A stretch of 64,000 nucleotides of DNA from NCBI GenBank assembly GCA_963701965.1, contig OY969695.1:768001-832000 (forward strand), read 5' to 3'. The position numbers were made by a program, and so were the translations under genes. Of this stretch, positions 3,634 through 47,736 are shown piece by piece; the first letter of the stretch is position 1, and the number at the start of each line of letters is the position of its first letter. The notes under the pieces were generated by a model. It saw only the letters and a list, made by a program, of their open reading frames with translations. It did no database searches and was not told the DNA's origin. The stretch comes from an uncultured Gemmatimonadales bacterium (GTDB lineage Bacteria; Gemmatimonadota; Gemmatimonadetes; Gemmatimonadales; Gemmatimonadaceae).

Positions 3634-4096
3634 CCAAGCCACTTGCTCACCTTAGGATCCGGCGCCCGAGCGTGACCAGCACTCTGCCAAAGAATGTCCA
3701 GCACACCTTGGAAGAGCGAGACGTTGTCTCCGAGGGGGTCTTCAACGATGACCGGGTCAATGTCAAGCACGTCTCGATCGATCGTACCGATGTTGTCGTC
3801 GAATGCATTCCGGGCCCCGCCTAGCACTCGCAATCCTGCCATCTTGTGCAACCGGACCGCGAGCACGAACGGGGGATCGACTCCGATGGTGTTCACTAGG
3901 AGCTTGAGGATGTCAGGCACCGAAGTAGCTGCCTCCCCTCCCTGCGGTGTTGGCGACCCGTATGCCGGGTAGCGCGTAGATCGCGTCCGCGGCGGTCGCC
4001 CGCCATTCGCTGCCGACCCCAGTCTTGCCCGGCCGGTTCGTTGCCGAATTGCGCTAGAGGCTCGGCCAAGTGCGTTGATTGAGGGATCTCCCAGAC

Positions 4097-5331: not shown

Positions 5332-5647
5332 TGTCGTCTTGCTAGGGTTGTTTTCGACACGAAGCTGCAACGTGGGGAATCGCAGCACTGTCCGTATCTC
5401 GCACTTGAGCTCGCTTCCAGAGCTGCCAGGGTCTGGTCTGATCTCCAGCCTGCGATTGTCATCGGGTTGACGCAACTCGCCGGCGCTTAGCACGGAGAGG
5501 GAAGTGAGGTCTTCTGGACCCATCGCATACGGTGCTTCCCATCGGCCCGACTTGTCCACACTTCGGAATCCGGACCGTGGGTTGGCAATTCCAGCGAAAT
5601 GAGCAACAGGTCACCGGAATCGTCCACGGTAGCCGGCGTCGCGGGTT

Positions 5648-5932
5648 TCATGACGACGGCTTGTGCAATTCATGAACGCCAAGCCACCATTTGAATTCAG
5701 CAGGATCGATCCAGCCATAGGAGCGATCCTCGGCATTGGGTGACTGAGAGGTCCATTCGGCCTTCTCGTGGACGGCGCCGTAGTGATCGACTTCTTCGAC
5801 GCTGAACTCGACACACGCGTTGTCGTCGATGAATCGACTCGAATACGCGCGCTGGAATGCAACGAACGACAGGTCGCCCGCTAAGTAGCGTTCGATCAAC
5901 GCGTCAAGATCTCGCTTGGCACTCGCCGGCAT
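5648..5932 (-). CDS. Small acidic protein, immunity-protein-like
   Basis: LDALIERYLAGDLSFVAFQRAY...YGWIDPAEF resembles colicin-type self-protective immunity proteins (inference). Confidence 0.5.
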   Translation of the reverse strand: MPASAKRDLDALIERYLAGDLSFVAFQRAYSSRFIDDNACVEFSVEEVDHYGAVHEKAEWTSQSPNAEDRSYGWIDPAEFKWWLGVHELHKPSS

Positions 5933-6169
5933 GAGCTCTTCATCCGTGTCTGTAAGCTGGGCATTCGCGATCGCGTGAGTCGTCGCGGAAGTCATGACCA
6001 TAAGTATCGACTAAGAGTACGAGCGATGACATCTGCGACGGTACCACGCGCCATACGGGTCAATTCATGCTCCCAGAAATGCGACTCGCTGGCGGGAGAA
6101 CCGCGCACCAAACCCGGATCGCACGGCGCATGGCCGCTTGTGTTGGAGGTAAATGGCGCCGTGTCTAAA

Positions 6170-6586
6170 TCAGCGATTGAGCCAGCGGCCAACGCCGCTG
6201 TGGTGAGAGCAGGTACCGGAGGTGTGACCGCTGAACAAGACGGACCCGTCCCCACACAATGCGCTACCCCCACCCGCTAAGTGCATGCAGTAGTCCGTCA
6301 CAAGAAACAGCGAGAGAAACAACCACCAGAAGGTCACTACCAGACGACCCTCGCTTGTGGACGGGCGCAGCTGCTTGACACCGAACGTCGCGCTTGCCGC
6401 AACACAGACCAGGAACACAATAACAAGCAGCGCCACGTTGCCAGTAATGGCGCCGTACACTGCCCCGACCGCCAACCAGCCTGAGAGGAAGGCGGCAATG
6501 GTGTTAACGGTTCTCGAGAGTCGCGAAAATAGGCGACCTACCCCGAGAGCGACGCCCCGGAAGGCGAGAACATAAACGATAGCCAT
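6170..6586 (-). CDS. Hypothetical membrane protein
   Basis: Three to four hydrophobic segments. The 3' end may be frameshifted. Confidence 0.5.
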   Translation of the reverse strand: MAIVYVLAFRGVALGVGRLFSRLSRTVNTIAAFLSGWLAVGAVYGAITGNVALLVIVFLVCVAASATFGVKQLRPSTSEGRLVVTFWWLFLSLFLVTDYCMHLAGGGSALCGDGSVLFSGHTSGTCSHHSGVGRWLNR

Positions 6587-6688
6587 AGCACCCTACGGAC
6601 TGCCGCAAATAGTGCGCTGTAACTAGCCTCCTTGGTTACAGCTCCTGCCTCAGTCTCGGCGTGATGCTCTGTCGTGGTAGGCCTAACC

Positions 6689-6743
6689 TGGAATTGACCC
6701 GGTAAAGTGGACACCCAAGTAACCCTGCGTATGTTCGGGGAGG
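6689..6743 (+). mobile_element. Orphan IS3-group left end
   Basis: TGGAATTGACCCGGTAAAGTGGACACC resembles an IS3 IRL. It is followed by a GGGGAGG RBS that is cut off by the next IS. Confidence 0.5.
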
Positions 6744-6794
6744 TGACGTTCCCCCCGAGATGAGGTCCGCGTATTCTGACACAAGCCGCTGGAC

Positions 6795-8035
6795 GGCCTG
6801 GGTCCCCCAAGTGAGTCCGAGCTAGCGCGTCAGTTTGTCAGCGCGGGGTTCGAGGGTGGTGACTGCCAGCGCTCCAATATCGCGCTGGGGGATTCAACCC
6901 CAAACTGGTATGGGGTCGGTGGTTGTTGTAGTCCTCGCGCCAGGCTTCCAGCTCGATCCGGGCTTCCGCGAGGGATGCGAACCAATGACGCGTGAGACAC
7001 TCACGCCGCAGGCTCCCGTTGAACGCCTCGCAGACGCTGTTGTCCACCGGCTTGCCCGGCCGACTGAAGTCGAGTTGCACGCGGTTCCAGTACGCCCAGT
7101 GATCGAGCGCGGTCGACGTGAACTCGGTCCCGTTGTCGCACTGGATGACCGGGGGCAGGGTGCCGCGTCGCTCCCCCGCCTCGGTCAGCAGCCGCGCGAC
7201 ATCGGTCCCGCGGAACCGTCCGGCGACGGCCAGCGCGACGCACTCGCGCGTGCACACGTCCACGAGCGTGAACACCCGGACCGTCTGGCCGGTCGCCAAG
7301 ACGTCGTGCATGAAGTCCATCGCCCAGCGTTCGTTCGCCCGCGTGACGACAGCCCGGGGCTGGCGCACCGTGGCCGCACGGCGTCGGCGGCGCCGCGGCT
7401 TGAGCTGGAGCCGTTCCTCGAGGTACAGACGGCGCGTCTTCTTGTGATTGATCGGCAGCCCGTCGCGGCGCAGCATGACGTGCAATCGCTTCACTCCAAA
7501 GCTCGGCCGCGCCAGTGCCAGCTCGTGCAGCCGCCGGCGCACGGGCGCGTCATCCGGCTTCACCGACGTGTAGCGCACCAGTGCGCGATGGACGACCAAC
7601 GCGTGACACGCCCGCCGTTCGCTGACCTGGTAGGCCGACTGCGCCCAGCCGACCGCCTCGCGCCTGTGGGCTGGGCTCACCATTTTTTTCCCAGGGCGTC
7701 CCGGAGGATCGTCTTGTCCAGCGTGAGATCGGCGACCACCTGCTTCAATCGCCGGTTCTCTTCGCGCAGCTGCTTCAGCTCCCGGAGCTCGCTCACGTCC
7801 AGCCCCGCGTACTGCTTCTTCCAGCGATAGAACGTCGTCTCGGTCACGCCCAGCTTCCGGCAGATCTCGCCCACGACGGTCCCGGCTTCTGCCTGCCGCA
7901 GCGCCTGCAGAATCTGCTCCGGGGTGAACTTACTCTTCCGCATTCCTGGCCTCCTCCCGTTCGGGGAGTCTGGCCTCGAATCCCTACGCTGTCAAAACGG
8001 GACCGCCGCCGGACTCAGAATCCGGGACCCAGGCC
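6795..8035 (-). mobile_element. Inner IS3-family element with 4-bp target duplication GGAC
   Basis: IRs GGCCTGGGTCCC...TGAGTCC at 6795-6818 and 8011-8035. GGAC at 6791-6794 and 8036-8039. Confidence 0.88.
6838..7943 (-). CDS. IS3 transposase OrfAB (orfA 7677-7943, orfB 6838-7683, programmed -1 frameshift)
   Basis: OrfA has an HTH (MRKSKFTPEQI). OrfB has WAMDF, DNGTEF, EAFNG. A7 slippery run at GGAAAAAAATGGTGA. Confidence 0.93.
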
Positions 8036-8057
8036 GGACGGCGGCCTGGAGGTTCAG

Positions 8058-9181
8058 ATGCGACGGAGTCGCTTTAGCGAGGAGCAGATTGTCGGGATCC
8101 TGAAGGAAGCGGAGGCCGGCGCGAAACTGGCCGAGCTGCTGCGGCGGCACGGGGTGTCGCGCGAGACGTACTATCGGTGGCGGAAGAAGTACCACGGGAT
8201 GGAGGTCGCGGACGCGCAGCGGCTCAAGGCGCTCGAGGAAGAGAACCGGCGGCTCAAGCGCCTGGTGGCGGATCAGGCGCTCAACATCCAAGTGCTCAAG
8301 GACGTGGTGGGAAAAAAGTGGTGACCGCGGCACAACGGCGGACCGTGGTCACGTACGTGCGCGCGACCGCCGGCCTTCAGGAGCGTCGGGCCTGTCGCTA
8401 CCTGCACATCCATCGCGCGCTCGTGCGCTATCGCGCTCGCCGGCCGTCCGACACCGCCCTGCGCGCGGCGCTGGAAGGGTTGGCCGAGGCGCACCCGCAA
8501 TGGGGCTGTCCGCGGTTGGCCTGGCGGTTACGCCGCGAGGGGTGGCGGGACAACTACAAGCGCATCGAGCGGGTGTATCGGGCAGCGGGGCTGGCGGTCC
8601 GACGGCGGAAGCGGAAGCGCATCGCGACGCGCCGCGTACCGATGCCCGCCCCGGCCACGGCGAACGACCGGTGGAGCATGGACTTCGTGCGAGATACGCT
8701 GGGGAGCGCGGGCCGCGCCTTCCGCGCGTTCACGCTCGTGGACGATTTCACCCGCGAGTGTCCGGCGATCGAGGTCGATCACGCGCTCCCGGCGACCCGG
8801 GTGCTCGCGGTGCTGGAGCGCGTGGCGGTCACGCGGGGACTCCCGCGGGTGATCGTGCTGGATAACGGCCCGGAGTTTCGGAGTCGGGCGTTGGACGAGT
8901 GGGCCCACGCGCGCGGCGTGGCGCTCCAGTTCATCGATCCCGGGAAGCCGGTGCAGAACGCGTACATCGAGTCGTTCAACGGGCGGTTGCGCAATGAGTG
9001 CCTGAACCAGCACTGGTTCCTGACGCTCGCCAATGCGCGCGCGACCATCGAGACGTACCGCCGGAGCTACAACGAGGCTCGGCCCCACGGCGCGCTCGCG
9101 GGGCGCACCCCAGCGGAGTATGCTGCAGAGATGGAGCGAGCGAGCTTGACCCCCATCACCCTTTCCCTGTTGTCAGCATAA
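8058..9181 (+). CDS. IS3 transposase OrfAB (orfA 8058-8324, programmed -1 frameshift)
   Basis: MRRSRFSEEQI, then WSMDF, DNGPEF, ESFNG. AAAAAAG slippery site at 8313-8319. Confidence 0.93.
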
Positions 9182-9300
9182 ACGGGCTCACACCGGGGGG
9201 AACGTCACGTACAAGTTCGCTCGGGCGGACTTGTCGATGATCGACCCGTGAGCCGTGTCATCAGCAATGCCCATCTCTGACACAAGCCCCGACAGCTGCG

Positions 9301-9579
9301 TTGTGCGTGACTGACGACGGACTGACGCGACACACTATATTGAAGGCCGCCGGTTCTCCGCGCGCAGGGGGACAGACCGCAGGGCAGCAGGAACCGGTCT
9401 ACTTCACACAACGCGAAGCCGCGCAGTACGTGCGCGTGTCGGTCGCCTACCTCCGAGCTAGCGATTGTCCAAAGGTCCTGTTGCCCTCGGGACGCGGGCG
9501 CCGCCCGCTCGTTCGCTACCTCAAGAGTGATCTCAATGCCTGGATGCAGACCTGGAGAGTGACTCGCCGTGCTTCGTAG
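9301..9579 (+). CDS. Excisionase/AlpA-like HTH protein
   Basis: YFTQREAAQYVRVS...VRYLKSDLNAW, directly upstream of the integrase. Confidence 0.75.
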   Translation: MCVTDDGLTRHTILKAAGSPRAGGQTAGQQEPVYFTQREAAQYVRVSVAYLRASDCPKVLLPSGRGRRPLVRYLKSDLNAWMQTWRVTRRAS

Positions 9580-9636
9580 CTCGTCCCGACCGACTACACG
9601 ACCCTCCTTCGACCGTGCTCTCGAGGCAGCTCACTG

Positions 9637-10962
9637 ATGCCTTATCGACGCGGGAGTCGTGAGACCTGGTCGTTCATGGCCGCGACGCGGACGGGGCGCA
9701 AGCAGCTCTCGAGCGGGTCGCAGAGCAAGAGTCAAGCGACACGCATCGAGAGCATGTGGCACATCCTTGCGGATGAGCACCGTGCCTGGGACCTGCTAGA
9801 TCCCGTCCTCGACGGTGAGACCTCGGTAGAGACCCTATACGACGCGTGGCAGGATACGCGGCACGACCTTGGCGAGATGCGTCGGCGCTTGGCGGACGTT
9901 GATATCGTACCACTCGTCGAGGAGTACCTTGCACACTACGGCGGTCTCGGCAAGCACGACACGTCAGCCGACAAAATCCGCTCCCACCTTCGGTGGTTAT
10001 TCCCGGTCGGATCCACGCGCAAGCGCACAACCGTCACGCCAGCCTCGCTGACTGCGAAACTCGGTGAGTACGCCGGCATTCCGCGGGCAGGCCAGAAGCT
10101 TCTGCCGCCAATCACGCCAGGTACGCGGCGGCGCGTCCACAGCGCGTGGAGCGGATTCTTCGCGTATCTCGCCAGTCCACAAGTCAGCACCGGACCGCTG
10201 TTCGCCACGAATCTGATGGATGCCGTGACTCGCCCCAAGGCGGCCACACCGCCCATCCGCTTCTATGAACTGCGCGAGATCCTGCTGCTGCTCGACCAGG
10301 CGCCTTCGTCTGACATGCGCGCCCTCTGGGCGCTCCTCTACGCCACCTCGATCGACATCTCCACCGCAATCCAGCTGCGACGGCAGGACTTTGACGAGCT
10401 CCGACGCGAAGTGCGCGCGCCAGGCACCAAGGCACACGCCCGCGATCGGATCTGCCGAGTCGCGGACTGGGCGTGGGAGATCGTTGCAGAGTTCCTGGCC
10501 GACAAAGCGCTCGGAGATCTCCTCTGGCCCGGATGGAATCAATGGACACCGACCGACGCCCACCGAGTCGCAACTAAGGCCGCCAAGCTTCGGCCCCTGC
10601 TGCCCCTCCGGTGCTCACGGCACTCGTGGGCCGTCCGAGCGGCGAAAGCGGGAACCCCAATCGCCATCATCGTTGCCCAGCTCGGACACGGCAGTCCCCA
10701 GCTCGCGTTGACGCGGTACGGGCGGTTCATGCCACAAGCCGTCGACCGAGACCGGTGGGAGAAGCAAGCGGCGGAACGCGACGCAGAAGCAATGCATCGC
10801 GCGAAAAACGTGCAGGCTGCCGTCCAATCTGCCGTCCACAGGGACGAACACCCAAAAAACACAAAACCGCATCGCGCGCAACTCATTGCGGCAATGCGGT
10901 TTCGGAATAGCAGGGGCGGGACTCGAACCCGCGACCCCGGCATTATGAGTGCCGTGCTCTAA
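9637..10962 (+). CDS. Tyrosine recombinase/integrase of the tRNA-Met island
   Basis: GTK, SRHSWA, QLGH and TRYG motifs. The ORF runs into the antisense strand of tRNA-Met. Confidence 0.88.
   Translation: MPYRRGSRETWSFMAATRTGRKQLSSGSQSKSQATRIESMWHILADEHRAWDLLDPVLDGETSVETLYDAWQDTRHDLGEMRRRLADVDIVPLVEEYLAHYGGLGKHDTSADKIRSHLRWLFPVGSTRKRTTVTPASLTAKLGEYAGIPRAGQKLLPPITPGTRRRVHSAWSGFFAYLASPQVSTGPLFATNLMDAVTRPKAATPPIRFYELREILLLLDQAPSSDMRALWALLYATSIDISTAIQLRRQDFDELRREVRAPGTKAHARDRICRVADWAWEIVAEFLADKALGDLLWPGWNQWTPTDAHRVATKAAKLRPLLPLRCSRHSWAVRAAKAGTPIAIIVAQLGHGSPQLALTRYGRFMPQAVDRDRWEKQAAERDAEAMHRAKNVQAAVQSAVHRDEHPKNTKPHRAQLIAAMRFRNSRGGTRTRDPGIMSAVL
10817..10838. repeat. Tandem 10-bp direct repeat, putative integrase arm-type site
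   Basis: CTGCCGTCCA-AT-CTGCCGTCCA, about 70 bp from the tRNA 3' end. Confidence 0.55.
10864..10902 (-). terminator. Hairpin/terminator downstream of tRNA-Met
   Basis: AAACCGCAT...ATGCGGTTT inverted repeat followed by a T-rich run on the minus strand. Confidence 0.55.
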
Positions 10963-10981
10963 CCAGCTGAGCTACCCTGCC
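10908..10981 (-). tRNA. tRNA-Met(CAT), elongator type
   Basis: GGCAGGGTAGCTCAGCTGGTTAGAGCACGGCACTCATAATGCCGGGGTCGCGGGTTCGAGTCCCGCCCCTGCTA. CCA is not encoded. Confidence 0.95.
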
Positions 10982-11472
10982 AATGTTGATCCCATTGAAC
11001 TTAGCCGGTCGACCTGCAACCTCAATTACCCGAGCGTCGCCGCAGTCGGTACATGTTCAGGACGAAAAAATAGCGCTGGTATGGCCAAGCTGTCGACCGA
11101 TGGTCTCGGCCTGGGCGCAGCCGCACCGCGTGGCGGTGGCGACGGTCGCCAATCTGGTTTTCGCGGTCGTCTCGACGCTGGTGTCCGAAGCACGAATTTC
11201 ACCGGCTAACACCACGCGGAACCCTGGCGAACCCCGCCGCGGGAATCCAGTATGTGTATCAGTTCACCGCCACCAGTGGGGTCTTCATGGAGTGGTTTCG
11301 CGCCTTGGTTGCTTCGCACCAATCCTTCGCCGGCGGCATCGGGCTTGCCATCGCCTGCGCCTCGCGTGGTTCCGCATTCGCGCCTTTTGGCAACGTTCCC
11401 GTCCTGGCCGCCGACTATGATGGCATGGGTCGGCACCGTATCTTCCGACCGTAACCGCGGAGTGGATGCCCA

Positions 11473-29384: not shown

Positions 29385-29529
29385 ATTGCGTGAGGTTGAC
29401 GTCGAGGTTGGTCGTAGCCACAGGCTATCGCCGTTCCCATCGCCACGCAAGGGGTCGGCCCAGCGTCGCCGCTCACTCGCCGTGCTTTGCGATCCAAAGC
29501 TCAGGCGTCTGTCACCGTTGGCACACATG

Positions 29530-29618
29530 CAAATCCGCGCGACCAACTCAAGCGAGTTAGCCGCGCGGATTTGTTGTCAATTTGTATAGCGGGGGCGGGA
29601 TTTGAACCCGCGACCTTC
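29530..29618. repeat. att direct repeat, distal copy (tRNA-fMet 3' part plus terminator)
   Basis: 89 bp identical to 45222-45310. Confidence 0.95.
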
Positions 29619-29882
29619 CGGTACCGACTAGACCGTTTCAGTGCTACGTCGCGGCGAATCAACGCGCGTTTGGCGCGAAACGCGCTCCGCGGCGGCCGGA
29701 ATAGGGCGAAAGTCGCTCCGAAAGTGTCAGGAAAAATCGGAGTCGCTGCGCTCATGAGCCGGGCGCAATTCTATCACAATTGTGCTCCTGTGTTGTCCGA
29801 GCGGTCGACGACCGCCCGCACGCGTTCAGGGAGCCGCGCAACCAGCAACCACCCCGCGGCCCGCGCGGCAGCAATCGCCGCC

Positions 29883-32800
29883 TCAATCGCCTCGCGCGTC
29901 AGAATGAGACGGTTTTGGCTGAGGAATACCTGTCGGTTGGCACACCAATCGATACTCGCAGCGACGACACTTGCACTCGTCCCAACTCGGGCGCGGGAGA
30001 TCGCGCCCGCGCCGTACCCTGTCGCGTAGCATGTCTACGACCATAGAGACCCGTATGCGCCAGTCGTTCAACCAGGCTGGCGTGATCGATATAACGCGAG
30101 ACTCGCCAACGCTGGTGAAGAAGAATACGAACTCCCGCAACTGCTCCACGCCGACCACCTCGGCAAACGCGAGTGCATACACAGCCGCCTGGATCTCGTA
30201 TTCCTTGAATTCCAGATCGAGAACGCGACCTAACTCAGGACCGGACACGTGATAGATGCCGGTCTTGGCATCAAGTATCCGCCAACCGTCGCGCTCTTGC
30301 CACACGCAGTCCAGTGTACCACGGAGCCGGATGTCCTCCCGCAGTTTGGCGACGAACGGTACCTCTCGATTCCGTCGGATCGCCCCCGCAATCCGACCGT
30401 TCCACTCACTCGCGAGGTAGTGTTCGGCGTGCCGCAGCAACGCCGCGATGTTGAGAGTCGCCTCTTCATCCGACATAGGCCGATGGCGTAGTAAGGCTCG
30501 CTTCATGGCGGCAGCCTGGCCCGCCTTGTCAGCATCAGGTTCCAACAGTTGCAAGAACTCGTGCAGTATCTGTCCGAGTGCCGCGGGTGCGATATTCTCA
30601 ATCACCGGGCCTTCCGCCACTGCCTCGATCTTGTTTGTCGATAGACTTGTCACGTAGCCGTAGTGATGCTTCCAGTCGCAGGATGCAAACTGCATCAGTT
30701 CACTCGCGCCAAACTCCGTCCGGAGGGGAGACCGGTCGAAGAGCGACCCCGCCCGATCCGTGACTGACTTGGGCCATGGCTGAGGCTCCGATGTCGGCGC
30801 CGCCGGGGGCGAGCCTGCGGAACGATCTACCGGTTTCGCTAACCATTCGCGCGGCCGGGTCTTGCTAATGGCTTGGATAGCCAGTGCAGGCGGCCCGCCG
30901 AGACCGCCTTCGAGTGTCGGCGGAAGACTCCGCGTCGCCTCCAAGCCGCGAAGAATGGGCGCCGCCCAACCGGCGGCCTTCTGCCCATTCGAGGCCCCGT
31001 ACTTGAACTCAGATTCACTCCCTCGAATCGCCGGATATAAATAACGCAACCAGTGGTCGACGCCACTCTTCGATCGCCATTCGCCTTTGGGATGCAGTGA
31101 ATAGGCCTCGTGAAGGGAGGGAGCCCCTGCAAGAATGAGTCGGTCTCGTGCGCGCGTGGCCGCCACGTAGAACAGCCGTTTTGCTTCAGCGTAGTCACGG
31201 GCCATCGCGGCTTCCTCGTAACGTTCCCAAATTCGGGATGGCTCCAACACGGGCGATTGAGAGCGCTCGTCGCGGAGCACAAGCCGCGTCGGGAGCGCAA
31301 CGCCGATCTTGGGCGCGAGGCCGACATGGCCTTCCCCAGGTTTACGGCAGAGCTTTTCTTCTAGCCCCGTGAGAAAGACATACGGCCACTCCAGCCCTTT
31401 CGCCTTATGCACGGTCGATATGACTACCACGTCATTGTCCGGCGTATAGATCGGCGCCTCATCCTCGGGCTCAGCGCGACGCACACGCGCGCCGATGCTC
31501 TCGACAAAGTGAGCTAGAGGCTCGCTCCCCCCAGTGCGCACGATTCGTAGAAACTTGTCGATATTGCGAAGCCCGGCTGGCGCGTCCGGTGCACCAGACA
31601 AGAACACCCGATACGCGGTCTCGGTGATAGCCACGTCAAGCAGCTGATGGTGTGGCAGCCTGTCCTTCAGGCCTATGAGGAGTTGCAGCAAGGCCAGCGC
31701 GTCCTCGACACGGCGGAGGCGCACCGCATTCGTTACGAACGCAGACGCTCCCTTGAGCGCGTCGAACAGCGACGCACTGCCGGCCTTCGTAGGCGGGCCT
31801 TTTCTGGAAGTCGCTTGCGTCAGCTCGAAAAGCGCGAGATCGTCCACTCCCCCAAGAGGCGAGCGCAGGAACGCCGCCAGGACCACCGGATCCACCGGAT
31901 CGGCCACGGCGCGAAGCAGGTTGACTAGGTCCTGAATTTCGGGGCGGGCATACAGGCCACGCCCGCCGTAGACGTAACAATCAATTCCGCGCTGCCGCAG
32001 CTCCCGTTCGTATACATTGGCTGAACTGACAAGCGCGCGAGACAGAATAGCGACATCCCGCTCGCGCAGGGGCCGCGCATGTTCCGAACCAGCCGAAGCC
32101 GGATCGCGCTCGAACACGGGAAAGTCCCCGCGATGGTCAAGCATGGTCCGGATACGTTCCGCGACGAGCGGCGCTGTTGCCGACGCCCCACCACCTCCTG
32201 GCGCCAGAAGGAGTTCGATTGCAACACCCGGCGTCTCCGAACGGCCAGACACAAGCGCCCGGTATGGCACATCGAACGTCATCCGAGTAGCCTCGTCCTC
32301 ACGACCCATAATCTGCTGCATGCAATCGTCAACGAACGCGATCAGGGCAGGGCGGCTCCGCTGCGAAACCGTCAAGGCGCGAGTCGTTCCGCCTGCGCGC
32401 ACCAGTATTCGGCGGGTGGCGGTCCACAAGGAGATGTCTGCTTGACGAAAGCCATAGATGCTCTGTTTTGGATCACCCACACAGATGAATCGCGGGCTCG
32501 GCGGACCACCGGGCTGACGGGCAGCGGCGGAGACCCCCGAGAGTCGCATAAGAAGTTCAGCTTGCGGACGGCTCGTGTCCTGATGTTCATCGACTAACAT
32601 CAGCCGCACCCGCGACTGGAACGCATTCTGCACCGTGGGCTCGTTCGCGAGCCGTGCTGCCTCCAGCACCACGTGATTATGGTCGAGCGCCCCGCGCATT
32701 TTCAAGCGCGCGACATACTGTCGTTCCGCCTTCGTGACAAGATGCAGGACGTCGCGCGCGTAGGGCTCGAGGAGCAGATCAGTCGCTGTCACCTTGACGA

Positions 32801-33497
32801 GCTCCCGCCAGGCCACCGGCCGTGCCTCCGGCCGCTCGGCAATGTCACGGAGGAGTGCTGCTTGCCCAATCAGTTCTGCCAGCAGCTCCCGAGACCGCAC
32901 GTACCCATAATGCCGTACGAAGAAGAGCGCCCCCGAGTCGCCCGCCCGGACACCGCTGAGAATTTCTGCGGCGGCCACTTCGGCCTGCAGCTCCGACGCC
33001 TCGCCGCCCTCCAAGATCTCGAATCCAGTTTCGATGCCGAGGATGGCACCATGGTCCCGCACGATACGGCCCGCAAACGAGTCGATGGTCCCCACAGCCA
33101 CATCATCGAGCAGAAACGCCTGCCTGGCCCATCGCTCGCGGTCACGGCCTTCAGCCGCGCCGGCACGCTGAATGAGCTGTCGACGCAATCGGTCACGGAT
33201 CTCGGCGGCTGCTTTCCTCGCGAATGTGATAGCCACAACTCCGTCGATGTCCAGTGCGGCCGGCGGGCCATGGCCAAGCTCCGGATAAAAACCCAATTCA
33301 TATAAGATCTTCGCTACAAGCAGCGTCGTCTTCCCCGTTCCTGCTCCAGCCTCGACGAGTTGGTGCCCACTGCAGTCAAGGACGACGGCCAGTTGCTCTG
33401 GTGTGAGCAACTTCGTCGGAAGAACGCCGCATTGCGCATCCGGTAGCGTGTCCGTAAGTGACGCCGCCGATGCGTGTCGCTCGTCCCAGGAACTCAT
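29883..33497 (-). CDS. AddA-like UvrD/SF1A helicase with C-terminal PD-(D/E)XK nuclease
   Basis: AGAGTGKT, DEHQDTS, GDPKQSIYGFR, HKAKGLE, YVAATRARD, then LDC...DAKTG...QAAVY and CRRCEYRLVC. ATG at 33497 overlaps the upstream stop. Confidence 0.88.
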   Translation of the reverse strand: MSSWDERHASAASLTDTLPDAQCGVLPTKLLTPEQLAVVLDCSGHQLVEAGAGTGKTTLLVAKILYELGFYPELGHGPPAALDIDGVVAITFARKAAAEIRDRLRRQLIQRAGAAEGRDRERWARQAFLLDDVAVGTIDSFAGRIVRDHGAILGIETGFEILEGGEASELQAEVAAAEILSGVRAGDSGALFFVRHYGYVRSRELLAELIGQAALLRDIAERPEARPVAWRELVKVTATDLLLEPYARDVLHLVTKAERQYVARLKMRGALDHNHVVLEAARLANEPTVQNAFQSRVRLMLVDEHQDTSRPQAELLMRLSGVSAAARQPGGPPSPRFICVGDPKQSIYGFRQADISLWTATRRILVRAGGTTRALTVSQRSRPALIAFVDDCMQQIMGREDEATRMTFDVPYRALVSGRSETPGVAIELLLAPGGGGASATAPLVAERIRTMLDHRGDFPVFERDPASAGSEHARPLRERDVAILSRALVSSANVYERELRQRGIDCYVYGGRGLYARPEIQDLVNLLRAVADPVDPVVLAAFLRSPLGGVDDLALFELTQATSRKGPPTKAGSASLFDALKGASAFVTNAVRLRRVEDALALLQLLIGLKDRLPHHQLLDVAITETAYRVFLSGAPDAPAGLRNIDKFLRIVRTGGSEPLAHFVESIGARVRRAEPEDEAPIYTPDNDVVVISTVHKAKGLEWPYVFLTGLEEKLCRKPGEGHVGLAPKIGVALPTRLVLRDERSQSPVLEPSRIWERYEEAAMARDYAEAKRLFYVAATRARDRLILAGAPSLHEAYSLHPKGEWRSKSGVDHWLRYLYPAIRGSESEFKYGASNGQKAAGWAAPILRGLEATRSLPPTLEGGLGGPPALAIQAISKTRPREWLAKPVDRSAGSPPAAPTSEPQPWPKSVTDRAGSLFDRSPLRTEFGASELMQFASCDWKHHYGYVTSLSTNKIEAVAEGPVIENIAPAALGQILHEFLQLLEPDADKAGQAAAMKRALLRHRPMSDEEATLNIAALLRHAEHYLASEWNGRIAGAIRRNREVPFVAKLREDIRLRGTLDCVWQERDGWRILDAKTGIYHVSGPELGRVLDLEFKEYEIQAAVYALAFAEVVGVEQLREFVFFFTSVGESRVISITPAWLNDWRIRVSMVVDMLRDRVRRGRDLPRPSWDECKCRRCEYRLVCQPTGIPQPKPSHSDARGD

Positions 33498-36400
33498 TGT
33501 GCCCGCTGCGGTTGCCGGTCGCCAGACACTGCCTGCGTCGCGGCATTGAAGTCTGGCAAGGAGACAGCGACAGGCATCGGCGACCGACCACGTCCGGGAG
33601 CCATGTGGGGCGTCTTTGACGCTCGGCACACCTCTCCTAACGGACAGCCAAAGCAGTCTCGATCTGCCTGCGGAACGAAATCCCCACCGCGCATCCCGCC
33701 AACGAGATCCGCCGCGCGCTTGGACGCGGCGGCAGCAGCAGCGATGATGGGATCCTTTCGCCCATTGTACCATGGGTCGAGTGTCAGTCCGTTGCCATGG
33801 ACGGAAAGCGTCGCGGCAGCAAAGAGGCGAGGGTCGGCGTTTAGCGCCGTGTGCATCTCCACCGAAGCCGAACACGCGCTTGCGGAAGTGCGATGCCGCT
33901 ATCCGAGCATAGAGAGGCAATTGTAATTCGCGCCCAGCGAGATACGCCTCACGCTCACGCTTCAGGCGCCAGCCGCGCGGGTCGCGTGCGGTTTTGTAGT
34001 CCCGAAGGATCAACATTCCCTGCACTGCGTTCGGGAGCCTCGGGTCACGGATCGCTTCCACGCGGTCGATCTTGCCGTGGAGACGAAAACGTATTCCGCC
34101 TTCAGATATCACTACTGGGGCGCCATATCCCACACGCGCCTCCACCGCCACAAGATCTGTCGCGATCATAAGCGACCTCGCGTCAGTCGCTGCCGCTAGC
34201 ATGCCTGAGAGGTCGCGACGGACGAAGTCGCGCAACACGTCAACGACGAACTCCCGATCAAGCTCTCGCAGCTCATCGTGGGCGGAGGGCGTTGACTCTT
34301 GCACGCAACTCCCCGCGACGGCCGCCAGACGAGCCAAGGCGGCGCTGATGTCCCCCGCGTGCCGTGGCGGAAGCATTCCATCGCGCGCCAGGTCGCGGTA
34401 CAGCCGCTCAAGAATGGCGTGTTGTAGCGTGCCAAACGCGGCAGCCTCGTTGTAATCCTCAGGATCGTCGCCTCCGCGTAAGCCTAGAAGGCGGGTCGCG
34501 AAGAACCGGAAGTGACACCGCTCGTAGAGTGCGAGCTCGCTTGGACTGAACGTCGCGTCGTCAGAGGCGATGTCTTCTGGAATCGCTGCCACGGGGAAAC
34601 GGCCAGCGAACGACGCACTAAGCCCCCCTATCGCCCCATGACTGAGTCGCGCATGTTGAGCGTCCCACAAATCGAGAACGCGCTCGGTCGCGCCGCTGGT
34701 GAGCCATGCGGCCAAGAGAGGATCCGCGGCGATAACGTCGCGGACTGCGCCGGCAGCGGCAGGCGGCGTCATTGGCCGTCGATGAACGTATTCGCGGTAA
34801 CGCGTTGCAGCCAACGCATTAACATTTGCCCATGCGTGGACATCCTCCACCCTGGTCGGCATTAGTTCCCTCGCCGCGAGCTGAATGACTCGAAACCCGG
34901 CCAATCGAAGTGGCACCGCGTTCACGAAGAGCGATGGCACGAGCGCCTTGCCCCGTTGGTCGGACGCAGGGGCGAGCAACACAAGTGCCTCCCTCGCGGT
35001 GGCAACCGCGAGATGAAACAAGTGGCGCTCCCTCGCGGCGCGATCCTCATTGGTCGGCAACCGCAGGGCGCGACGTTCCAGGTCCGACACGACATGCTCA
35101 TTGAGATCGGCACGAATCGGGAATTCGCCCTCGGCGAGCCCTACCACGTAGACATGTCGCCAGCTGCGAAATGCCGCATCGTGCGGATCAACCACGTGCA
35201 CCGCCTCGCGCGGATACGTCGTGTTCCGCACGAGCGTCGCACGCGACAGGGCGTCCAGCTCCTCCAGCCAGGCAGCCGCGTCCATCGGAGTGTCCGCCAA
35301 CGCTGCCACCTGCCGTCCGAGGAGCCACTCGGATGCGGCCTGCGTCAGCGCATTTAATCCATCAATGTCGTCGCGAGCGAGTTCGGCACGCCGGTCGTGG
35401 GGAATGCGTTCGTCGCCCACCGTAACGCGTTCGATGGGGAGCCATCTCGCGATGACATTCCGGAGCGATTCGACCCAGGTTGATGGACGTTGCGTAGCGG
35501 CAGCGCCGGTTGCCGCAGCGAGACCGTCCACAAAAGTACGGAACGCGGTCGCCAGCCCATGGAGCTCATCCACGGCCGCTAGGGACTGGTTCCGGGCATC
35601 GTTCTCAAGAAGCCCGAACCAGCCTGCGGCGCCGGTCGCGGGCGATGCCCCGTCAGCAATGTGTCCCAAGAGCGTCGTGTTGAGACCCAACGCGAGATAC
35701 GGCGACCCCGCAGCCGCCAGCACGTCTCGCACGTGCCAGTTGCCTGCGACGAGGCGAAAGACCAGGATCGCAGCACGTACGGCCGGTATGGCGGCCAACG
35801 CCGTCTGGCTGGATGCCTAGGCAGGCAGCCCCCGATCCGTCAGCGCTTGCACAACATTGGTCGCGATGTCCTCTGTGCGACGCGCAATGATTGCGACGTC
35901 GCTAGATCTCAACGTCGGGTCGGTGAGCAGAGATCGCTTTATTTCGTTCGCGAGCCAATCGATTTGTAGCTGACGGTCGGGAACGACAACAGCCCGCACC
36001 GCCCCCGTAAGAGCCGCTGGTGGACGTCTATACGCAAAGGGATCAGTCGCGAGCGCATGGAGGTCCGGGGCCACCCGTTGGCTTCCTGAAACTATGGTCC
36101 GCACGCTTCCACCCAGGTCAGACCAGCGATTGACAAGTGCGTCGTTGGCGTGGGTGGGCCACGCCGAGACCAAGGCCTCGTCGGGCATGACCAGAGCTAG
36201 ACGAACCCGTGACACATCCGCGCGTACGCAAAGACCGGCGGCGAGGCGGATGCCGACATCCATGGGACTTACGGCGTCGAATCCCAGGAAGGTGAATGAG
36301 CTGACGCCAAACGGCGGGGGCACGAGTCTCGCCTGTTCGGCCGCGCTGATGGCGCGACCCTTTGGACCAACGAACGCCTCGGCACGCATCGCTGCAGGTA

Positions 36401-36901
36401 ACGGCGGTAGACCTCTGCCAGGACCGATGCGCGGTCCGACAACGCTGGCACGCCAGGATTCTGACCCCGAAGTGCCTCCTCGAGGGCCTCTGCCGTCCAG
36501 CCAAAGGGTTCTAAGTCCGCGAAGAGACGGGTGAGCGAGCGGAGCGTGGCGTCGCCGACCCGTGACCCAACAACGTTGCCCTTGAAACGTTTTCCGCCAG
36601 ACTCGGCATGCAGATCGAGAATGATGGCCGCAATGACCTGTCGCACCTGGAGCGCCGTCAACGTTCGCGACGGATCCAACTGCAGCGCATAGTGCTCGAC
36701 GAGCGAGTCGAGACTGACGACTTTTGGGCCCGCCCAGGCGCCAGACGGAACCATCTCCACCACTCGTTGGATCACGTCGCGCTGCAGCGGGACTCGTGCA
36801 ATCACCAGGCACGCGCGATCACCATCAGAAACGACGTCCGCGACGACCCGGTCCAAGAGGGCTGACGGATCTTCCGACGTCAGAAGTTCGAGTCGAAGCA
36901 T
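33494..36901 (-). CDS. AddB-like inactive helicase plus PD-(D/E)XK nuclease (interrupted: frameshifts ~36340 and ~33860, in-frame TAG at 35817-35819)
   Basis: SDVAIIAR, VVGLAEGEFP, FSPSEL..YERCHF, FGTLQHAILE, GKIDRVE, DYKT, QLPLY and CFGCPLGEVC, spread across four ORF pieces. Confidence 0.8.
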
Positions 36902-38148: not shown

Positions 38149-40206
38149 ATGCTCGATTGGTTCCGACGCGATAAGTCAAGCACTAAAGAGGAGACCAAAG
38201 TCGGGACAGCCTGCACGCCGGGGGCGCCAGGCGACAGCGCTGCACCGCAGGGGCCCACCCAGCACGACGACGGCGCCGGCACCGCAGTGGCGCGGCTCGG
38301 CGGCGCCATGGACTACCTCGCCACCCCCGCTGTGGCCGCGTACTTCGACGCCCGCGAACACGAAGCGTACTATCACGCGCTGAAGCACGTCGGCCCCCGC
38401 CGTGACTTCCACGAGCGGATCATCGCGGTCGGCACACGGTTCATCTAGCTCACTGACAGTGAGGGCGGGACAGTAGCGGTGGATCGCGCAATGGCGACTG
38501 CGCACGGGCGCCATAACCGGACGACCGCGGGAAACCGGCTCGCGAGTGCGCGGGGCCAGCACCCGCGCGGTGTCGAGTTGCTCGGGCTCGTCGAGCCGCT
38601 CACGTATGAATCCCTGAAGGCCGCGTACCGCATCGCTGCCCGCCGTAACCATCCCGATGCGGGCGGTGATCACGACGCGATGGTGGCGGTGAACGAGGCG
38701 TTCAGCCTCGCGCACAACCTACTGCGGGAAGAGCAGGTCGCTGGCGGCGACAATGGCCGTGGCGTGCTGTTCGGCAATGTGGTCGAGCCCCGAGACTGCG
38801 CGGACTACCGATACGTCTGTGGGGAGCTGCTCTTCTTGGCCACGCTCGACGACTGGAACGTCGACGTGGCACTGGGTTGGCTGGATCGCCTCACGTCCGC
38901 CGAGTGGCAGCAGTGCCACTACGCGCAAGACCGCCAACAGCGCCTAGCGTTGACCGAGCCGGCCGGGCGACTCGCGACTCGACTCGCAATCGCGCAGCGC
39001 ACCGCGGGGGCGCGGAGATCGCTCGCGGTGGCGCAGGAGGCGCTACGCGTCGCGAAGGCGGAGGGGCTCTCCTACGACCATTACGTCCGCGAGCCCGAGG
39101 CAGTCCTCGCCGGCACCAAGCGCTCGCAGGTCGTCATCAACCACCCGCGCCAGGCCGAGAACGCGCTCCGCCTCGGCCTCATTGACGAGAGACGGTACCG
39201 GAGGTCACTGGAGAAGTGCGCGGCGGAGGCTGAGGAGCACGGTACCGTCGAAGAGCAGCTGCGGAGGGTTCAGTCCCCAGGCGGGTTCGTCGCCGACTTG
39301 CCGACCGACCGCCTGGCGAGGGGCAAGGTCGTGCGGAGCAGTCTTGTGCCGGAACCCGGCTACTTCGTCACGCGAATTGCGCAGCTTACGGACGACCAGC
39401 AGGCCGAGTACCTGCGTGCGTTCGGTGGCGGGGCTCCGCTCGGGTTCATGCGGAAGTACACATTTGTGCGTTTGGTGAGCCTGCTCGAGTCCGTGCTTTT
39501 CCGCCCAGGTGAGGCTGATTCCGCCTCGGCCGCGCGTGAGGCCACCGTCTTGGGATCGCTCCACACTGGTAGCGGCATGGCGTACGCCGCCGCCGTCGCG
39601 GAAGCCCTCACCGATCTCGGGTCGCGGCCCAGTGACGAGCGACGGGAGCGCGCCGCGATCCTCTCCGCCATCGAGAGCAGCGCCCGTCACTCGTCCGGCG
39701 GCATCCTCGGCTTCGGGGGCTCGCCTCTCGGGATGCCGCTCACCGCGGACTACATGAAGCTGATCCGGCGCCCGCTCGGCGACCTGCGCGTACTCCAGCA
39801 GCGTGGGGTACTCGCGGAGGGCGCTTCCGACCACCGAGAGCGCGAAGCTTGGTCTCGGGACATGGATGCCTTGCGGGCCCCCGACGTGGTGGCCTCCCAG
39901 GGGGTGGCCTTCGCCACCATGGACAACGCGAAGGCCGCCCCAGACCGCGCCGTCGACACATGGGCTCGGCACTGCGAGATGCTGCTGGAGCTCGGCGAGT
40001 CGATGGTGCACGTCGAGCAGTTGCAGCTGGGGTACTGGATCGACCGACTCACTGCCGCGCTCGTGCGCCTGAAGCGATGGGACGACGCACTGACGTGGCT
40101 AGAACGGTACTCGGGTCTCCCGGACAGGTACCGCGGGCGCTCGAGCCCCTCCGAGGATGGGCGCTTGCGGAAGCGTCTCGACCGCTGTCGCGGCAAGGTG
40201 ACGTAG
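38149..40206 (+). CDS. J-domain (HPD) helical-repeat protein; in-frame TAG at 38446-38448
   Basis: LKAAYRIAARRNHPDAGGDHDAMVAVNEAF. GGGAGG RBS before ATG 38149, which is in frame with the 38479..40206 ORF. Confidence 0.7.
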
Positions 40207-40254
40207 CGGCGCACCGGCCGGCGTGTAGATGAGGAACCGATGACCTGCGGCCAT

Positions 40255-41333
40255 CCAAACGACGGACGCCCGGCGAGGGGCGCCAGGCGGTGGGCCTCGT
40301 CGCGCGCGAAGAGCCCACCGTCGGGGGCTCCCCCGTCGTGCCGTGCGTCCGTCCGTCGGCGACGTCGCGCGTCCATGCCACCAGGTGCGCCTCGAGCGCG
40401 GCGAACGACGCGAAGCGATGTCCCGCCACGGCGTTCGCCTTCACGTAGCCCACGCCGCGCTCGTCCTTCCCCTTGGTCCGGGCCCGATACGCCGCGCACG
40501 CAACCGGCCGGACGCCCCAGTGCTGCGCGAACGCGAGGAAGCGCGGGTCGAAGACCGCCGGCACGGTTGCGCGCCGCGCGCGGTGAGCACGAGCGGCTTC
40601 GTATTGTCGACGAGCACCGTCACCGGCATCCCGCCGAACGCGTGGAACGTCCTCTCCAGCCCCTTGAACCAGGCCGTCTGCCGCTCGTGCCGGAAGACGC
40701 GCACATGACAGCGGCGCGAGTATCCGAGCGTCGCGACGAAGAAGTACAGCCGCTCCGGCACGCCGTCGAGCACGACCCGGCGCTCGCCGAAGTCGATCTG
40801 CAACTGCTCGCCCGGCGCCCTCTCGAAGCGGACCGTCGCCCGTGCCTCGGCCCGGAGCACCTGGCGGAGCGGGGCGACCGCCCGTTCAACCGCGCGGAGC
40901 GAGGCGTCGACGCCGTGCACGCGGGCGAGCTCCTGCCGGACGACGTCCGCGTTCCCGCGGTGCTGGTAGAACTGCGCGGTGATCCAGTCCGCATACGCGG
41001 CGAGGCGACCGGGCCGTGGAGGACGCCCCCCAGGGCCCCAGCCGCCCTGCGCCAGATAGCGCTTCACGGTGTTCCGGGCGCAGCCGACCTCGGCGGCGAT
41101 CCGCTTCGAGCCCCAGCCGAGGGCGTGGAGGCGCAGGAGCACAGCGACATCATGGGGGTCCGCACAGCATCCACGTCCGCAGGTGGCGAAGCCGCGGCGG
41201 CTGGCCGGGATGGGGACGACGTCGAACACGGGACCAGGCGAGGGGCGTTCCACGGGACCAACCTCCGCAGCATCAGGGTGGGGGGGTCAATTCCACGTGT
41301 CGCCAGGGGGTCAGTTTACCGTGTCGCCCGACA
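40255..41333 (-). mobile_element. istA: Truncated IS21-family element (left end plus partial, frameshifted istA)
   Basis: Left end TGTCGGGCGACACGGTAAACTGACCCCCTGGCGACACGTGGAATTGACCCCC. QIDFGE, LGYSRR, DNTK and TKGKDER motifs. No istB or right end. Confidence 0.85.
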
Positions 41334-42852: not shown

Positions 42853-43158
42853 ATGACCACAAATGCCGAACGTAAAGAGCATCCAATCTCGATGCGCCTG
42901 CCTGAAGCCGACATCGCGATAATTGATCGCGCAGCCCTCTTGCGGGGCAGTTCACGCACGGATTTCGTTCGCGAGGCGGCCGTCCGCGCTGCAGAGACCG
43001 TGCTGCTGGAGCGCGGACTTATCCGGATGAGCCCGAAAGGGTTCGCCCATTTCGTTGCTGCCCTCTCGGGGCCAGCGACACCGGTGCCGGAACTGGTTGA
43101 ACTGGCGAGGCGCCCCGCCCCGTGGGAGACAGGCTACCGAGCCAAGACCAAGCGCTGA
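42853..43158 (+). CDS. DUF1778 (TacA/AtaR-like) ribbon-helix-helix antitoxin
   Basis: ISMRLPEADIAIIDRAA...SRTDFVREAA. Confidence 0.9.
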   Translation: MTTNAERKEHPISMRLPEADIAIIDRAALLRGSSRTDFVREAAVRAAETVLLERGLIRMSPKGFAHFVAALSGPATPVPELVELARRPAPWETGYRAKTKR

Positions 43159-43671
43159 GCTTTGGCCCCATCGGTCCTGAACGACTGACTGCGGCGCACG
43201 ATGTGTCGCAGTTCAGTTGCGGCAAGCCGACCCTTGATCACTGGCTCAAGACGCGCGCCCTCTCCAACCAGGAGAGAGGCTTCACCGCCGTCATGGTCGT
43301 GCATCAGGCTGGCCGTGTGGTCGGATACTACTGGTCTGGCGCCGACAGCTGTAATTCCCAATGTGTTGCCTCGGTCGATTCGGACCGGTCAGCCTCCAGA
43401 TCCCGTCCCCTGCCTCTTGCTCGGTCAGCTGGCGACCGACATTGGCTGGGCGGGGCAAGGGATTGGCACCGGCCTGTTGAAGCACGCCTTGGAGCGCTGC
43501 GTGACGGCCGCGCAGCTGATCGGGGGGCGCGCGCTTGTGGTCAACGCCGTGGATAGCGAGGCTGCCAAGTTCTGGGAGCGACGAGGGTTCATCCCCTCGA
43601 AGGATGACCCGCTCGTGCTGTTCTGCTCGATCGCCTCGATCGCCACCTCCCTAGCCGAAGCGCGCCGATGA
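43155..43671 (+). CDS. GNAT toxin (TacT/AtaT-like), frameshift near 43333
   Basis: HDVSQFSCGKPTLDHWL...VVGYY in one frame, PVPCLLLGQLATD...GQGIG...FWERRGF in the next. Confidence 0.85.
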
Positions 43672-43963
43672 TTGTGCGAAATACGTGGGCGACCGGCAAC
43701 CGGCTGATCCGAACAGTAGCTGGCGAAAATCGATGCCGCGCACCATAACGGTCGTGCACAACTGGACCTACGCGCTGAGGCGCACAGCCAAATAGAGGTC
43801 CGGGGCACCATTGGATGGAGCCCAATGAATTTAGAGGTGAGGAAGATGCCCGGCGAGACCTACCATCGCGACCTTTGGTGAGCGTGGCTCCACGATACGC
43901 GTCCTCGGCGATGCGCAAACACACCGCATCCATGTTGAATGGCGGGAAGGCGGTAGGCGCAAG

Positions 43964-47736
<3,773 letters not shown>

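Follow-up and report, generated by a model that had tools for sequence, protein, structure and literature searches.

A coupled addB-addA pair on an island at tRNA-Met

Within the window, by which we mean the whole 64,000-nt stretch of DNA that was analysed, a 15.8-kb integrase island was found inserted at tRNA-Met, downstream of enolase (Table 1). The island is flanked by a 122-nt direct repeat, the two copies of which are 93% identical, and its largest cargo is a pair of genes resembling addB and addA, in which the TGA of addB and the ATG of addA overlap as ATGA (33497-33494). This bore out the original prediction of an ATGA-coupled AddAB-like pair on a tRNA island carrying a toxin-antitoxin (TA) pair. 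Besides this TA pair, no defence genes were found on the island, nor were genes for replication or conjugation. The true start of the integrase is likely to lie near 43847, behind a one-base indel. The 571-aa cargo ORF, with a GC3 of 0.84 and host-like codon use, had no PADLOC match. The tRNA-Met was kept in all five congeners with different genes downstream; two of them (G005 and G003) contained a similar att duplicate preceded by different cargo, and G005 also retained a related integrase remnant at the same tRNA.

Table 1. Features of the island and their positions in the window.
Feature	Position	Strand	Remarks
Distal att copy, far island boundary	29501..29622	-	tRNA 3' part and downstream hairpin; 122-nt direct repeat
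addA-like gene, intact, 1204 aa	29883..33497	-	SF1A (UvrD-type) motor, C-terminal RecB-family nuclease, putative 1+3 Cys staple
AddA Cys triad CRRCEYRLVC	29940..29969	-	C1177, C1180, C1186
AddA first staple Cys (C940), in ASCDWK	30686-30669	-	sequence motif
addB-like gene, ~1135 codons, broken in assembly	33494..36901	-	inactivated helicase fold, C-terminal nuclease, putative 1+3 Cys staple
AddB Cys triad CFGCPLGEVC	33626..33655	-	sequence motif
addB lesion 3: frameshift, one-base gain in short G run	33856..33864	-	between nuclease motif IV and Cys triad
AddB first staple Cys, in ERCHF	34523-34509	-	sequence motif
addB lesion 2: in-frame TAG	35817..35819	-	homologues have Val, Tyr or Arg there
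addB lesion 1: frameshift, one base lost near 36390	36386..36395	-	frame shift relative to P0128 and P0129
Cargo ORF, 571 aa	38491..40206	+	weak N-terminal DnaJ-like match, PF00226, E 0.006, below cut-off
Truncated, frameshifted remnant of an IS21-like transposase (istA)	40230..41253	-	rve and HTH domains
TacA antitoxin, intact	42853-43158	+	PF08681, E 1e-17
TacT-like GNAT toxin, one frameshift	about 43155-43671	+	GNAT domains
Tyrosine integrase	43847..45319	+	PF00589, PF02899; open frame 43964-45319
Proximal att copy (45193-45314) and intact tRNA-Met(CAT) (45279-45352)	45193..45352	-	insertion site

Relationship to known helicase-nucleases

The addA gene forms one unbroken frame (33497 to 29883), with intact motor motifs (Walker A, 33350-33327; DEHQD, 32591-32577) and the nuclease motifs D1063, D1076-x-K1078 and Q1103xxxY. 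The predicted model of AddA (pLDDT 86.5) gave Bacillus subtilis AddA as its top fold match (4cej_A, E 1e-45), and a PDB sequence search with the nuclease domain alone returned no match. In AddB the nuclease motifs H, DRV, DYK and QLPLY are intact, and a Walker A motif was absent from the 16 intact homologues and from the piece in the window. AddB matched the profile of 3u44_B (E 6e-20), and the predicted model of its intact homologue P0128 matched AddB best (4cei_B, E 3e-35). PF12705, the PD-(D/E)XK family, was detected at the C-termini of both subunits (E 1e-20 and 1e-22), in agreement with the two nuclease domains originally proposed.

AddAB of B. subtilis (PDB 3U44, 3U4Q, 4CEH-4CEJ) was the top match in sequence and fold for both subunits, the fold of AddB being judged from P0128. 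The two systems share the coupled addB-addA order without recC or recD, an AddA built from an SF1A motor and a RecB-family nuclease, and an AddB that combines an inactivated helicase fold with a nuclease bearing a predicted iron staple. However, identity in the structural alignments was only ~15-18%, and both subunits stayed far below the NCBIfam cut-offs for the Bacillus-type equivalogs TIGR02785 and TIGR02773, with 203 bits against 708 for AddA and 32 against 904 for the largest AddB piece. Furthermore, the island AddB lacks the Walker A motif of Bacillus-type AddAB, the pair is accessory and island-borne, and it appears to have a second staple, on AddA, whereas the cluster of B. subtilis is placed in AddB by PMC3321194.

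AdnAB of Mycobacterium smegmatis (PDB 6PPJ, 9NP6) likewise consists of two paralogous motor- or motor-like nuclease subunits. AdnA is described as keeping Walker A/B, binding nucleotide and holding an Fe-S cluster in its nuclease domain (PMC13000450, PMC3321194), whereas the island partner subunit has no NTP site, and matches to AdnAB were weaker than those to AddAB. Escherichia coli RecBCD has the RecB-like motor-nuclease fold in common with the pair but differs in that neither a RecC nor a RecD gene is present here and the partner keeps intact nuclease motifs, giving two nuclease domains instead of one. The UvrD-Cas4-like fusions of pfam12705, as portrayed in PMC5704561, also join an SF1 helicase to a Cys-staple nuclease, with some loci near type III restriction-modification (RM) or WYL genes; in that account they are single genes beside RM or Dcm/Vsr, whereas here the fusion is coupled to a full-length AddB partner in the eight homologue pairs whose contigs agree in length. 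Lastly, the UvrD-type helicase domain of AddA scored on the GajB models of Gabija (GajA-GajB; best E 6e-31), but the matches to this and other PADLOC helicase-nuclease systems comprised short, generic motor motifs, and no GajA/OLD nuclease was found.

Cysteine staples in the two subunits

The AddB nuclease has the motif of a 1+3 Cys iron staple, as in many, but not all, AddAB enzymes, and the same putative arrangement recurs in AddA, as the original prediction had it. Staple counts were scored on the Cys triad, because the regular expression for the first Cys is conservative and misses C940 of the island AddA (P0001). By this measure, 15 of 16 intact AddB homologues have the triad, as do 20 of the 29 close homologues of AddA, the other nine having lost it. 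Across the family, staples were observed in both subunits, in AddB only, in neither and, rarely, in AddA only. The double staple, which the original prediction contrasted with Bacillus AddAB, is not distinctive of the island: of 50 pairs drawn from the phylum, 20 have it, as do 3 of 42 from other genomes, some Bacillota among them. We rejected it as a defence marker, since it also occurs in apparently ordinary loci and was lost in the nine close AddA homologues. Most likely, the staple on AddA belongs to the structure of the nuclease fold and was simply retained, with gains or losses across the family, and is no sign of a new activity.

State of addB

As assembled, addB is interrupted by three lesions, and tblastn with P0128 recovered it in three pieces of 56, 56 and 50% identity, with the Cys triad downstream of the last frameshift. 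These pieces keep 182 of the 198 residues conserved in the subfamily (92%), which compares with 84-94% in intact homologues and 92% in addA, so that any decay must be very recent. A long-dead pseudogene was rejected since the conserved sites are intact, as was recoding of the TAG stop codon, which involves a single site at which the residue varies in homologues. The assembly contains 10 frameshifts in 141 orthologues, pcrA among them, and the end of enolase has lost one base in a T run ~400 bp from the island. Since such frameshifts also affect core genes, the lesions in addB could stem from assembly error, to which we give a slightly better than even chance. At three in 3.4 kb they are nevertheless more frequent than the error rate of core genes predicts (Poisson P 0.001-0.03), and single indels were also seen in istA, in tacT and at the start of the integrase.

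Acquisition and distribution

The host genome (G000; 95% complete, one contig) contained no other gene of the AddA, AddB or AdnAB type, and RecC was not found in it. Its only PF12705 matches were the two addBA domains and one 233-aa frame, its remaining UvrD-family genes were of the UvrD/PcrA type, and it encodes RecO, RecJ and Ku. AddAB was present in none of the five congeners, and RecC was not found in them either; since a core copy is absent from these relatives, one hidden in the missing ~5% of the genome is unlikely. The GC3 of addBA (0.67-0.70) lies below the 1st percentile of the genome (0.75). This low GC3 and the absence from five congeners support horizontal acquisition of the pair.

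In trees, the island AddA fell in a subfamily of ~29 members that is sister to the main AddA clade of the phylum (SH 100; SH-aLRT 99) and stood apart from the copies of the host family. The original prediction had named, as one outcome that would count against it, a sole addAB grouping with vertically inherited orthologues; the genome indeed has no second addAB, but the pair does not group with the copies of its host family. Nearly every genome of family f6 has the main clade (28 of 30), and some carry two AddA-like genes. The close subfamily is rare and consists mostly of singleton metagenomic proteins, and the only host named in its clusters was that of a Candidatus Palauibacterales MAG protein. 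Searches of 400 genomes from the phylum, 400 from the family and 250 from the order, and of plasmids, gave no member, and no close relative was found in IMG/VR or GenBank phages. Contig scans covering genomes, metagenomes and viruses, in which generic AddA motifs were dominant, yielded distant loci only, and an AddB-specific viral scan gave no match. Pairs resembling addBA did occur on Deinococcus plasmids, where they adjoin a replication initiator; in the plasmid-borne copy of D. deserti, addA is also split.

Among 150 near-complete genomes of the host family, 31 had AddAB and 21 had RecC, both in a patchy and nearly exclusive manner, and about 98, or about two thirds, had neither. None of the 21 RecC genomes (one if G096 is counted) was among the 31 AddB genomes, where 4.3 were expected. 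RecBCD fills the same slot in this family, and such exclusivity is the pattern that PMC6452273 associates with interchangeable repair pathways.

Neighbourhoods of related loci

Gene contexts were counted for 48 loci of the sister clade and of addBA lineages further removed (28-37% identity), the flanks available from the close subfamily being those of the island locus only. Most of these loci are surrounded by ordinary genes of metabolism, and the scanned neighbours included no integrase. A PafBC-like WYL pair was present within the fetched flanks of 19 of the 48 loci and ~9 kb from recC in G273 and G324, an echo of AdnAB, since damage induction of mycobacterial adnA is attributed to PafBC (PMC8682763). 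The host genome itself had no WYL gene. Repair genes nearby included RmuC (2 loci), spore photoproduct lyase, photolyase and SRAP.

Defence genes, namely RM, Azaca/Hma, AIPR or PDC genes, adjoined 6 of the 48 loci as opposed to none of 20 control windows (p=0.17, a value that overstates the difference because the loci are kin and not independent), and were thus rarer neighbours than the WYL pair; at one of the six, L299, the pair has HmaC on one side and a complete Azaca ZacABC on the other. A link to Dpd or Argonaute was rejected, since the scanned neighbours contained neither, save for weak DpdE scores on an Azaca helicase. PADLOC 2.0 assigned the 12 island proteins or pieces to no specific system; AddA received generic GajB/RTasHel UvrD matches, among the 25 of 49 families listed, and AddB matched no model. 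These data lend the proposed defence role little weight.

Function of the island pair

Together, these findings suggest that addBA, the only AddAB-type helicase-nuclease of this genome and one acquired with an island, is probably an accessory enzyme that resects double-strand breaks, so that RecA can act in their repair, in a genus otherwise without such a motor. More likely than a new anti-virus system is an optional break-repair module that relatives hand on to one another. By analogy with B. subtilis AddAB and mycobacterial AdnAB, a heterodimer of AddA and AddB would bind a DNA end. The AddA motor would track 3'->5'. Of the two nucleases, that of AddA would cut the 3' strand and that of AddB, braced at the fork by its predicted [4Fe-4S] staple, the 5' strand, so that 3' tails of single-stranded DNA remain. 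Phage or plasmid DNA that is linear and unprotected might be degraded as a by-product, and an anti-plasmid side effect is plausible. In Thermus, transformation is reported to rise as much as 1000-fold when AddAB is lost (PMC9751324), so genomics cannot separate a role in repair from one as a barrier.

Alternatively, defence could come first, the subfamily being kept on mobile islands as a destructive nuclease that degrades linear invading DNA with no switch to repair. The rarity of the subfamily, the TA pair, the Deinococcus plasmid copies and the six loci beside defence genes would fit, as would the absence of a Walker A site from the island AddB. In AddB, this site is linked to Chi handling. 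UvrD-Cas4-like fusions have, moreover, been put forward as defence accessories (PMC5704561). Nevertheless, no defence model fits either subunit, the TA pair supplies the only defence-type genes on the island, the enrichment over control was not significant, and exclusivity with RecBCD suits repair and not a stackable defence; the screen for RecBCD-affected phages presented in PMC12315714 found none inhibited. We consider defence first unlikely. Rather less likely still is the specific idea that a mobile AddAB with two [4Fe-4S] clusters and no AddB nucleotide site is a Chi-blind destroyer of linear DNA, spreading on tRNA islands through a phylum whose genomes mostly lack any end-resection motor and giving recipients a new barrier to phage and plasmid DNA; if true, a housekeeping repair machine would have been repurposed as a transferable defence system. 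The version in which the pair backs up the host enzyme needs such an enzyme, and none exists. Accordingly, the 'second' end-resection machine of the original prediction, beside a core addAB or recBCD, is hardly credible: some f6 genomes do carry two AddA-like genes, but the nearly complete host genome and its congeners have no other AddA, AddB or RecC.

It is also conceivable, if quite improbable, that the island is degenerating, with addB a true pseudogene, AddA alone doing little and no current function. The lesion density in addB, the other island indels and the split addA of D. deserti favour such decay, whereas the conserved residues kept in the addB pieces and the error-prone assembly speak against it; it would, moreover, concern the state of this copy and not the role of the family. 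Very unlikely, finally, is an AddAB that promotes recombination, repair or transfer of the island itself instead of the host. While no other cargo of this integrase element matches addBA in size and the plasmid copies lie beside a replication initiator, related loci sit mostly amid metabolic genes without an integrase in the scanned neighbourhood, close relatives were not found in IMG/VR or GenBank phages, and genes for replication or conjugation are absent from the island.

AddAB, RecBCD and AdnAB count as core genes that almost every genome carries, with a figure of 88% of genomes given in PMC6452273. The host family, by comparison, is about two thirds without AddAB or RecC, and the remainder is patchy, often with a PafBC-like regulator alongside. 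This copy matters less, being broken in addB as assembled and residing in an uncultured host. The family at large offers a natural system for asking what such enzymes are retained for, be it repair or a barrier against foreign DNA, a question debated for RecBCD, and its staple variation allows a direct test of the role of the cluster. The island itself looks like one of these patchy acquisitions of AddAB or RecC, with att sites that are still readable.

The gene pair encodes an AddAB variant

The TGA of addB overlaps the ATG of addA. AddA matched the Pfam families UvrD-helicase, UvrD_C and PDDEXK_1, and the main AddB piece matched PDDEXK_1, while the top NCBIfam models were addA_Gpos, addB_Gpos or the related TIGR03623, with scores far under the cut-off. 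The motor motifs and the nuclease motif sets of both subunits were intact, and 4/4 cysteines of the Cys staple (one Cys, then a C-terminal triad) were present in AddA and in AddB and kept across the subfamily. A Walker A motif was absent from AddB, in the window pieces as well as in the 16 intact homologues inspected, whereas B. subtilis AddB has one according to the accessible part of PMC3321194. Predicted models (pLDDT 86.5 for AddA residues 24–1204; 84.7 for P0128, an intact AddB homologue) had B. subtilis AddA and AddB, respectively, as their best structural matches, and PDB sequence searches also ranked these two proteins best. By architecture and fold the gene pair is thus AddAB, and its sequence predicts a variant with two staples and an AddB without a nucleotide site.

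Features of the addBA island (window positions)
Feature	Position	Strand	Description	Basis
addA	33497->29883	minus	single intact frame, 1204 aa	
addB	36901 to 33494	minus	upstream of addA, four pieces	
addB lesion 1	near 36390		one base lost	P0128 alignment
addB lesion 2	35819-35817		TAG	P0128 alignment
addB lesion 3	near 33860		one base gained	P0128 alignment
Direct repeat, 122 nt	29501-29622 / 45193-45314		copies 3′ end of tRNA-Met(CAT)	

In the relaxed Cys-triad pattern applied to complete pairs, which were sampled by likeness to the query, 20 of the 50 Gemmatimonadota pairs carried the staple on both subunits; a further 16 had it on AddB alone, and 14 lacked it altogether. Both subunits had it in 3/42 pairs from other genomes (Thermoflavimicrobium, Phascolarctobacterium and a Tissierellia MAG) and in 2/40 metagenomic pairs; an AddA-only staple occurred in two genome pairs. 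Within the close subfamily the full triad was missing from 9/29 AddA proteins, two of them truncated or frameshifted. As read from these motifs, the double staple is a labile, widespread trait. In the openly available literature we found no description of clusters in both subunits, nothing on Gemmatimonadota break repair and, at the level of search listings, nothing on island-borne addAB.

The host genome shows no other AddAB and no RecC

The original prediction held that the pair is a second machine beside a core addAB or recBCD. This was wrong, because there is no core copy in the host genome (one contig, 94.96% complete): PF12705 matched only both addBA domains and one 233-aa frame, the remaining UvrD-family matches were of the UvrD/PcrA type, and RecC was not found. 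Ku, RecO and RecJ are present. An AddA-level match was found in 0/5 congeners, where PF12705 matches sit in 187–535-aa frames, the longest of which encodes a 476-aa protein without a helicase, and RecC in 0/4 of those at least 90% complete. Two machines do coexist in family f6, where many genomes have a staple-free addBA operon alongside a different one with an AddB staple (L312–L315; G087, G110). At one further locus (L311, G234:C1:1318350-1319610), 13 tRNA genes form an array roughly 4 kb away from a second addBA operon.

The protein search gave 2308 matches in 7989 scored candidates. Close AddA homologues numbered ~29, mostly of 38–54% identity and nearly all singleton metagenomic proteins; a profile search added about 16 full-length AddB partners, eight of which come from contigs equal in length to that of a close AddA. 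Two trees were built, a FastTree with 178 helicase cores (8/186 rows, E. coli RecB among them, were left out for incomplete domains) and an IQ-TREE subset of 43; in both, the close subfamily branched as sister to the main AddA clade of the phylum and was not nested in host-family copies. Proteins of the relatives cluster with named Gemmatimonadota records, which points to that phylum for the host. The grouping with vertically inherited orthologues of the host family, named in advance as counter-evidence, was seen in neither tree.

With the window AddA as query, which overlooks a second addBA lineage at greater distance (as in G034), AddA was detected at E<=1e-25 in 16/93 host-family, 16/166 f2 and 28/30 f6 genomes. 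Among 150 host-family genomes, each at least 90% complete, PF12705 matched in 42, of which 31 were judged AddB-type by hand, and RecC occurred in 21; the two overlapped in no genome (one when counting G096, excluded for its 497-aa frame and no AddA match) versus 4.3 expected, and about 98 of the 150 had neither. RecBCD and no fewer than three AddAB lineages have a scattered distribution in this family. The congener and family tallies include the unpublished G012 and G573, and no claim is based on those two alone. Further afield, addBA-like pairs occur on the Deinococcus plasmids L382 (NC_012529.1) and L383 (NZ_CP140099.1); the D. deserti plasmid addA is annotated as three pieces, and the other plasmid pair adjoins a replication initiator.

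The island occupies an insertion hot spot

Between the repeats lie a tyrosine integrase, a TacA/GNAT pair, an IS21 remnant, a 571-aa ORF and addBA. The GC3 of addA and addB is 0.67–0.70, and their codon scores fall under the 1st percentile of 1210 long host genes. The tRNA-Met is retained in 5/5 congeners with differing downstream genes, and G005 and G003 have att duplicates of their own. This site is an insertion hot spot, and addBA was gained horizontally, in a genus without end-resection motors.

The 571-aa ORF (38491-40206), though inside the island, has codon use like that of the host, and its N-terminus weakly resembles DnaJ. Another tRNA-Met(CAT) (10907-10982) marks the end of a second mobile region (483-10982) that contains IS21/IS3-like transposases and a 428-aa integrase (9676-10962); in G001 and G003 this tRNA is only 3.5–7 kb from the first. 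Outside the window, about 1–320 kb of the host contig deviates in tetranucleotide composition, most at 100–200 and 260–300 kb. A second valS, uvrD and recJ lie in this stretch and look betaproteobacterial at the protein level. Here the single contig is probably a chimera.

Decay or assembly error in addB

P0128 (1138 aa) aligns to addB in three frames with 56, 56 and 50% identity. Assembly error as the source of the lesions is slightly favored. A check of 141 core orthologues (162.7 kb; reference, 259 G001 genes) revealed 10 frameshifts, i.e. in ~7% of those examined, and five stops, of which about two look genuine; four of the 10 frameshifts cluster in 24.7 kb at contig 800–850 kb. The enolase gene is one base short in a T run close to its 3′ end (45730-45745), and both RecJ copies are split. 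Any gene that is broken in this assembly calls for caution. Three lesions per 3.4 kb of addB correspond to a Poisson P of 0.001–0.03, single indels also occur in tacT, istA and the integrase start, and 92% of conserved residues are still present in the addB pieces, comparable to intact homologues. Recent decay of addB and poor polishing of accessory DNA both fit. The TAG in addB is part of a perfect 10-bp palindrome (35814-35823) that occurs twice in the genome; a template-switch origin is possible.

Repair and defense as possible roles of addBA

We took 72 addBA regions, 48 of them in f1 (the host family) to f3, many ending at contig edges, and scanned selected sets of neighbors (88/118 picked, 70/91, and 106 by PADLOC). 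Neighbors varied by genome and were mainly metabolic. Among them, the only recurring partner was a PafB/PafC-like WYL pair at 19/48 loci (among them L294, L298, L300-L302, L306-L308, L327, L329, L348, L353-L355, L408, L409, L419 and L427); no WYL gene was found in the host genome. Genome-wide, the PafC HTH occurred in 12/16 f1 genomes with AddA versus 20/77 without, and in 11/16 versus 47/150 in f2, the kin not being independent. In G273 (C54) and G324 (C4) its distance to recC is ~9 kb. In mycobacteria, adnA is controlled by PafBC, as stated in the accessible portion of PMC8682763. The WYL pair with addBA, or with recC in two genomes, possibly forms a portable damage-inducible resection module outside Actinobacteria.

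Repair is the best-supported role of addBA and a probable one, with a mechanism that would follow B. subtilis AddAB and AdnAB (PMC3321194, PMC13000450, in part; background also from sections of PMC6452273 and PMC5704561). The enzyme could plausibly also act as a barrier, as a by-product, in the way described for Thermus AddAB in the available part of PMC9751324. That barrier or defense is the primary role seems unlikely; a recent screen saw no phage inhibited by RecBCD, as far as the accessible text of PMC12315714 goes. Defense genes were near 6/48 loci in the selected neighbors (L295, L297, L298, L299, L352 and L411; weaker matches at L300, L308, L356, L412 and L427 were left out) versus 0/20 control windows of one congener, a nonsignificant excess (p=0.17; 43/259 proteins, skewed to core contigs). 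The clearest defense-island case is L299 (G219:C36:12000-31999), where addBA without Cys staples has a Swt1-HEPN/DUF499 (HmaC) gene on one side and the complete Azaca ZacABC set on the other, and a tRNA-Thr adjoins the locus.
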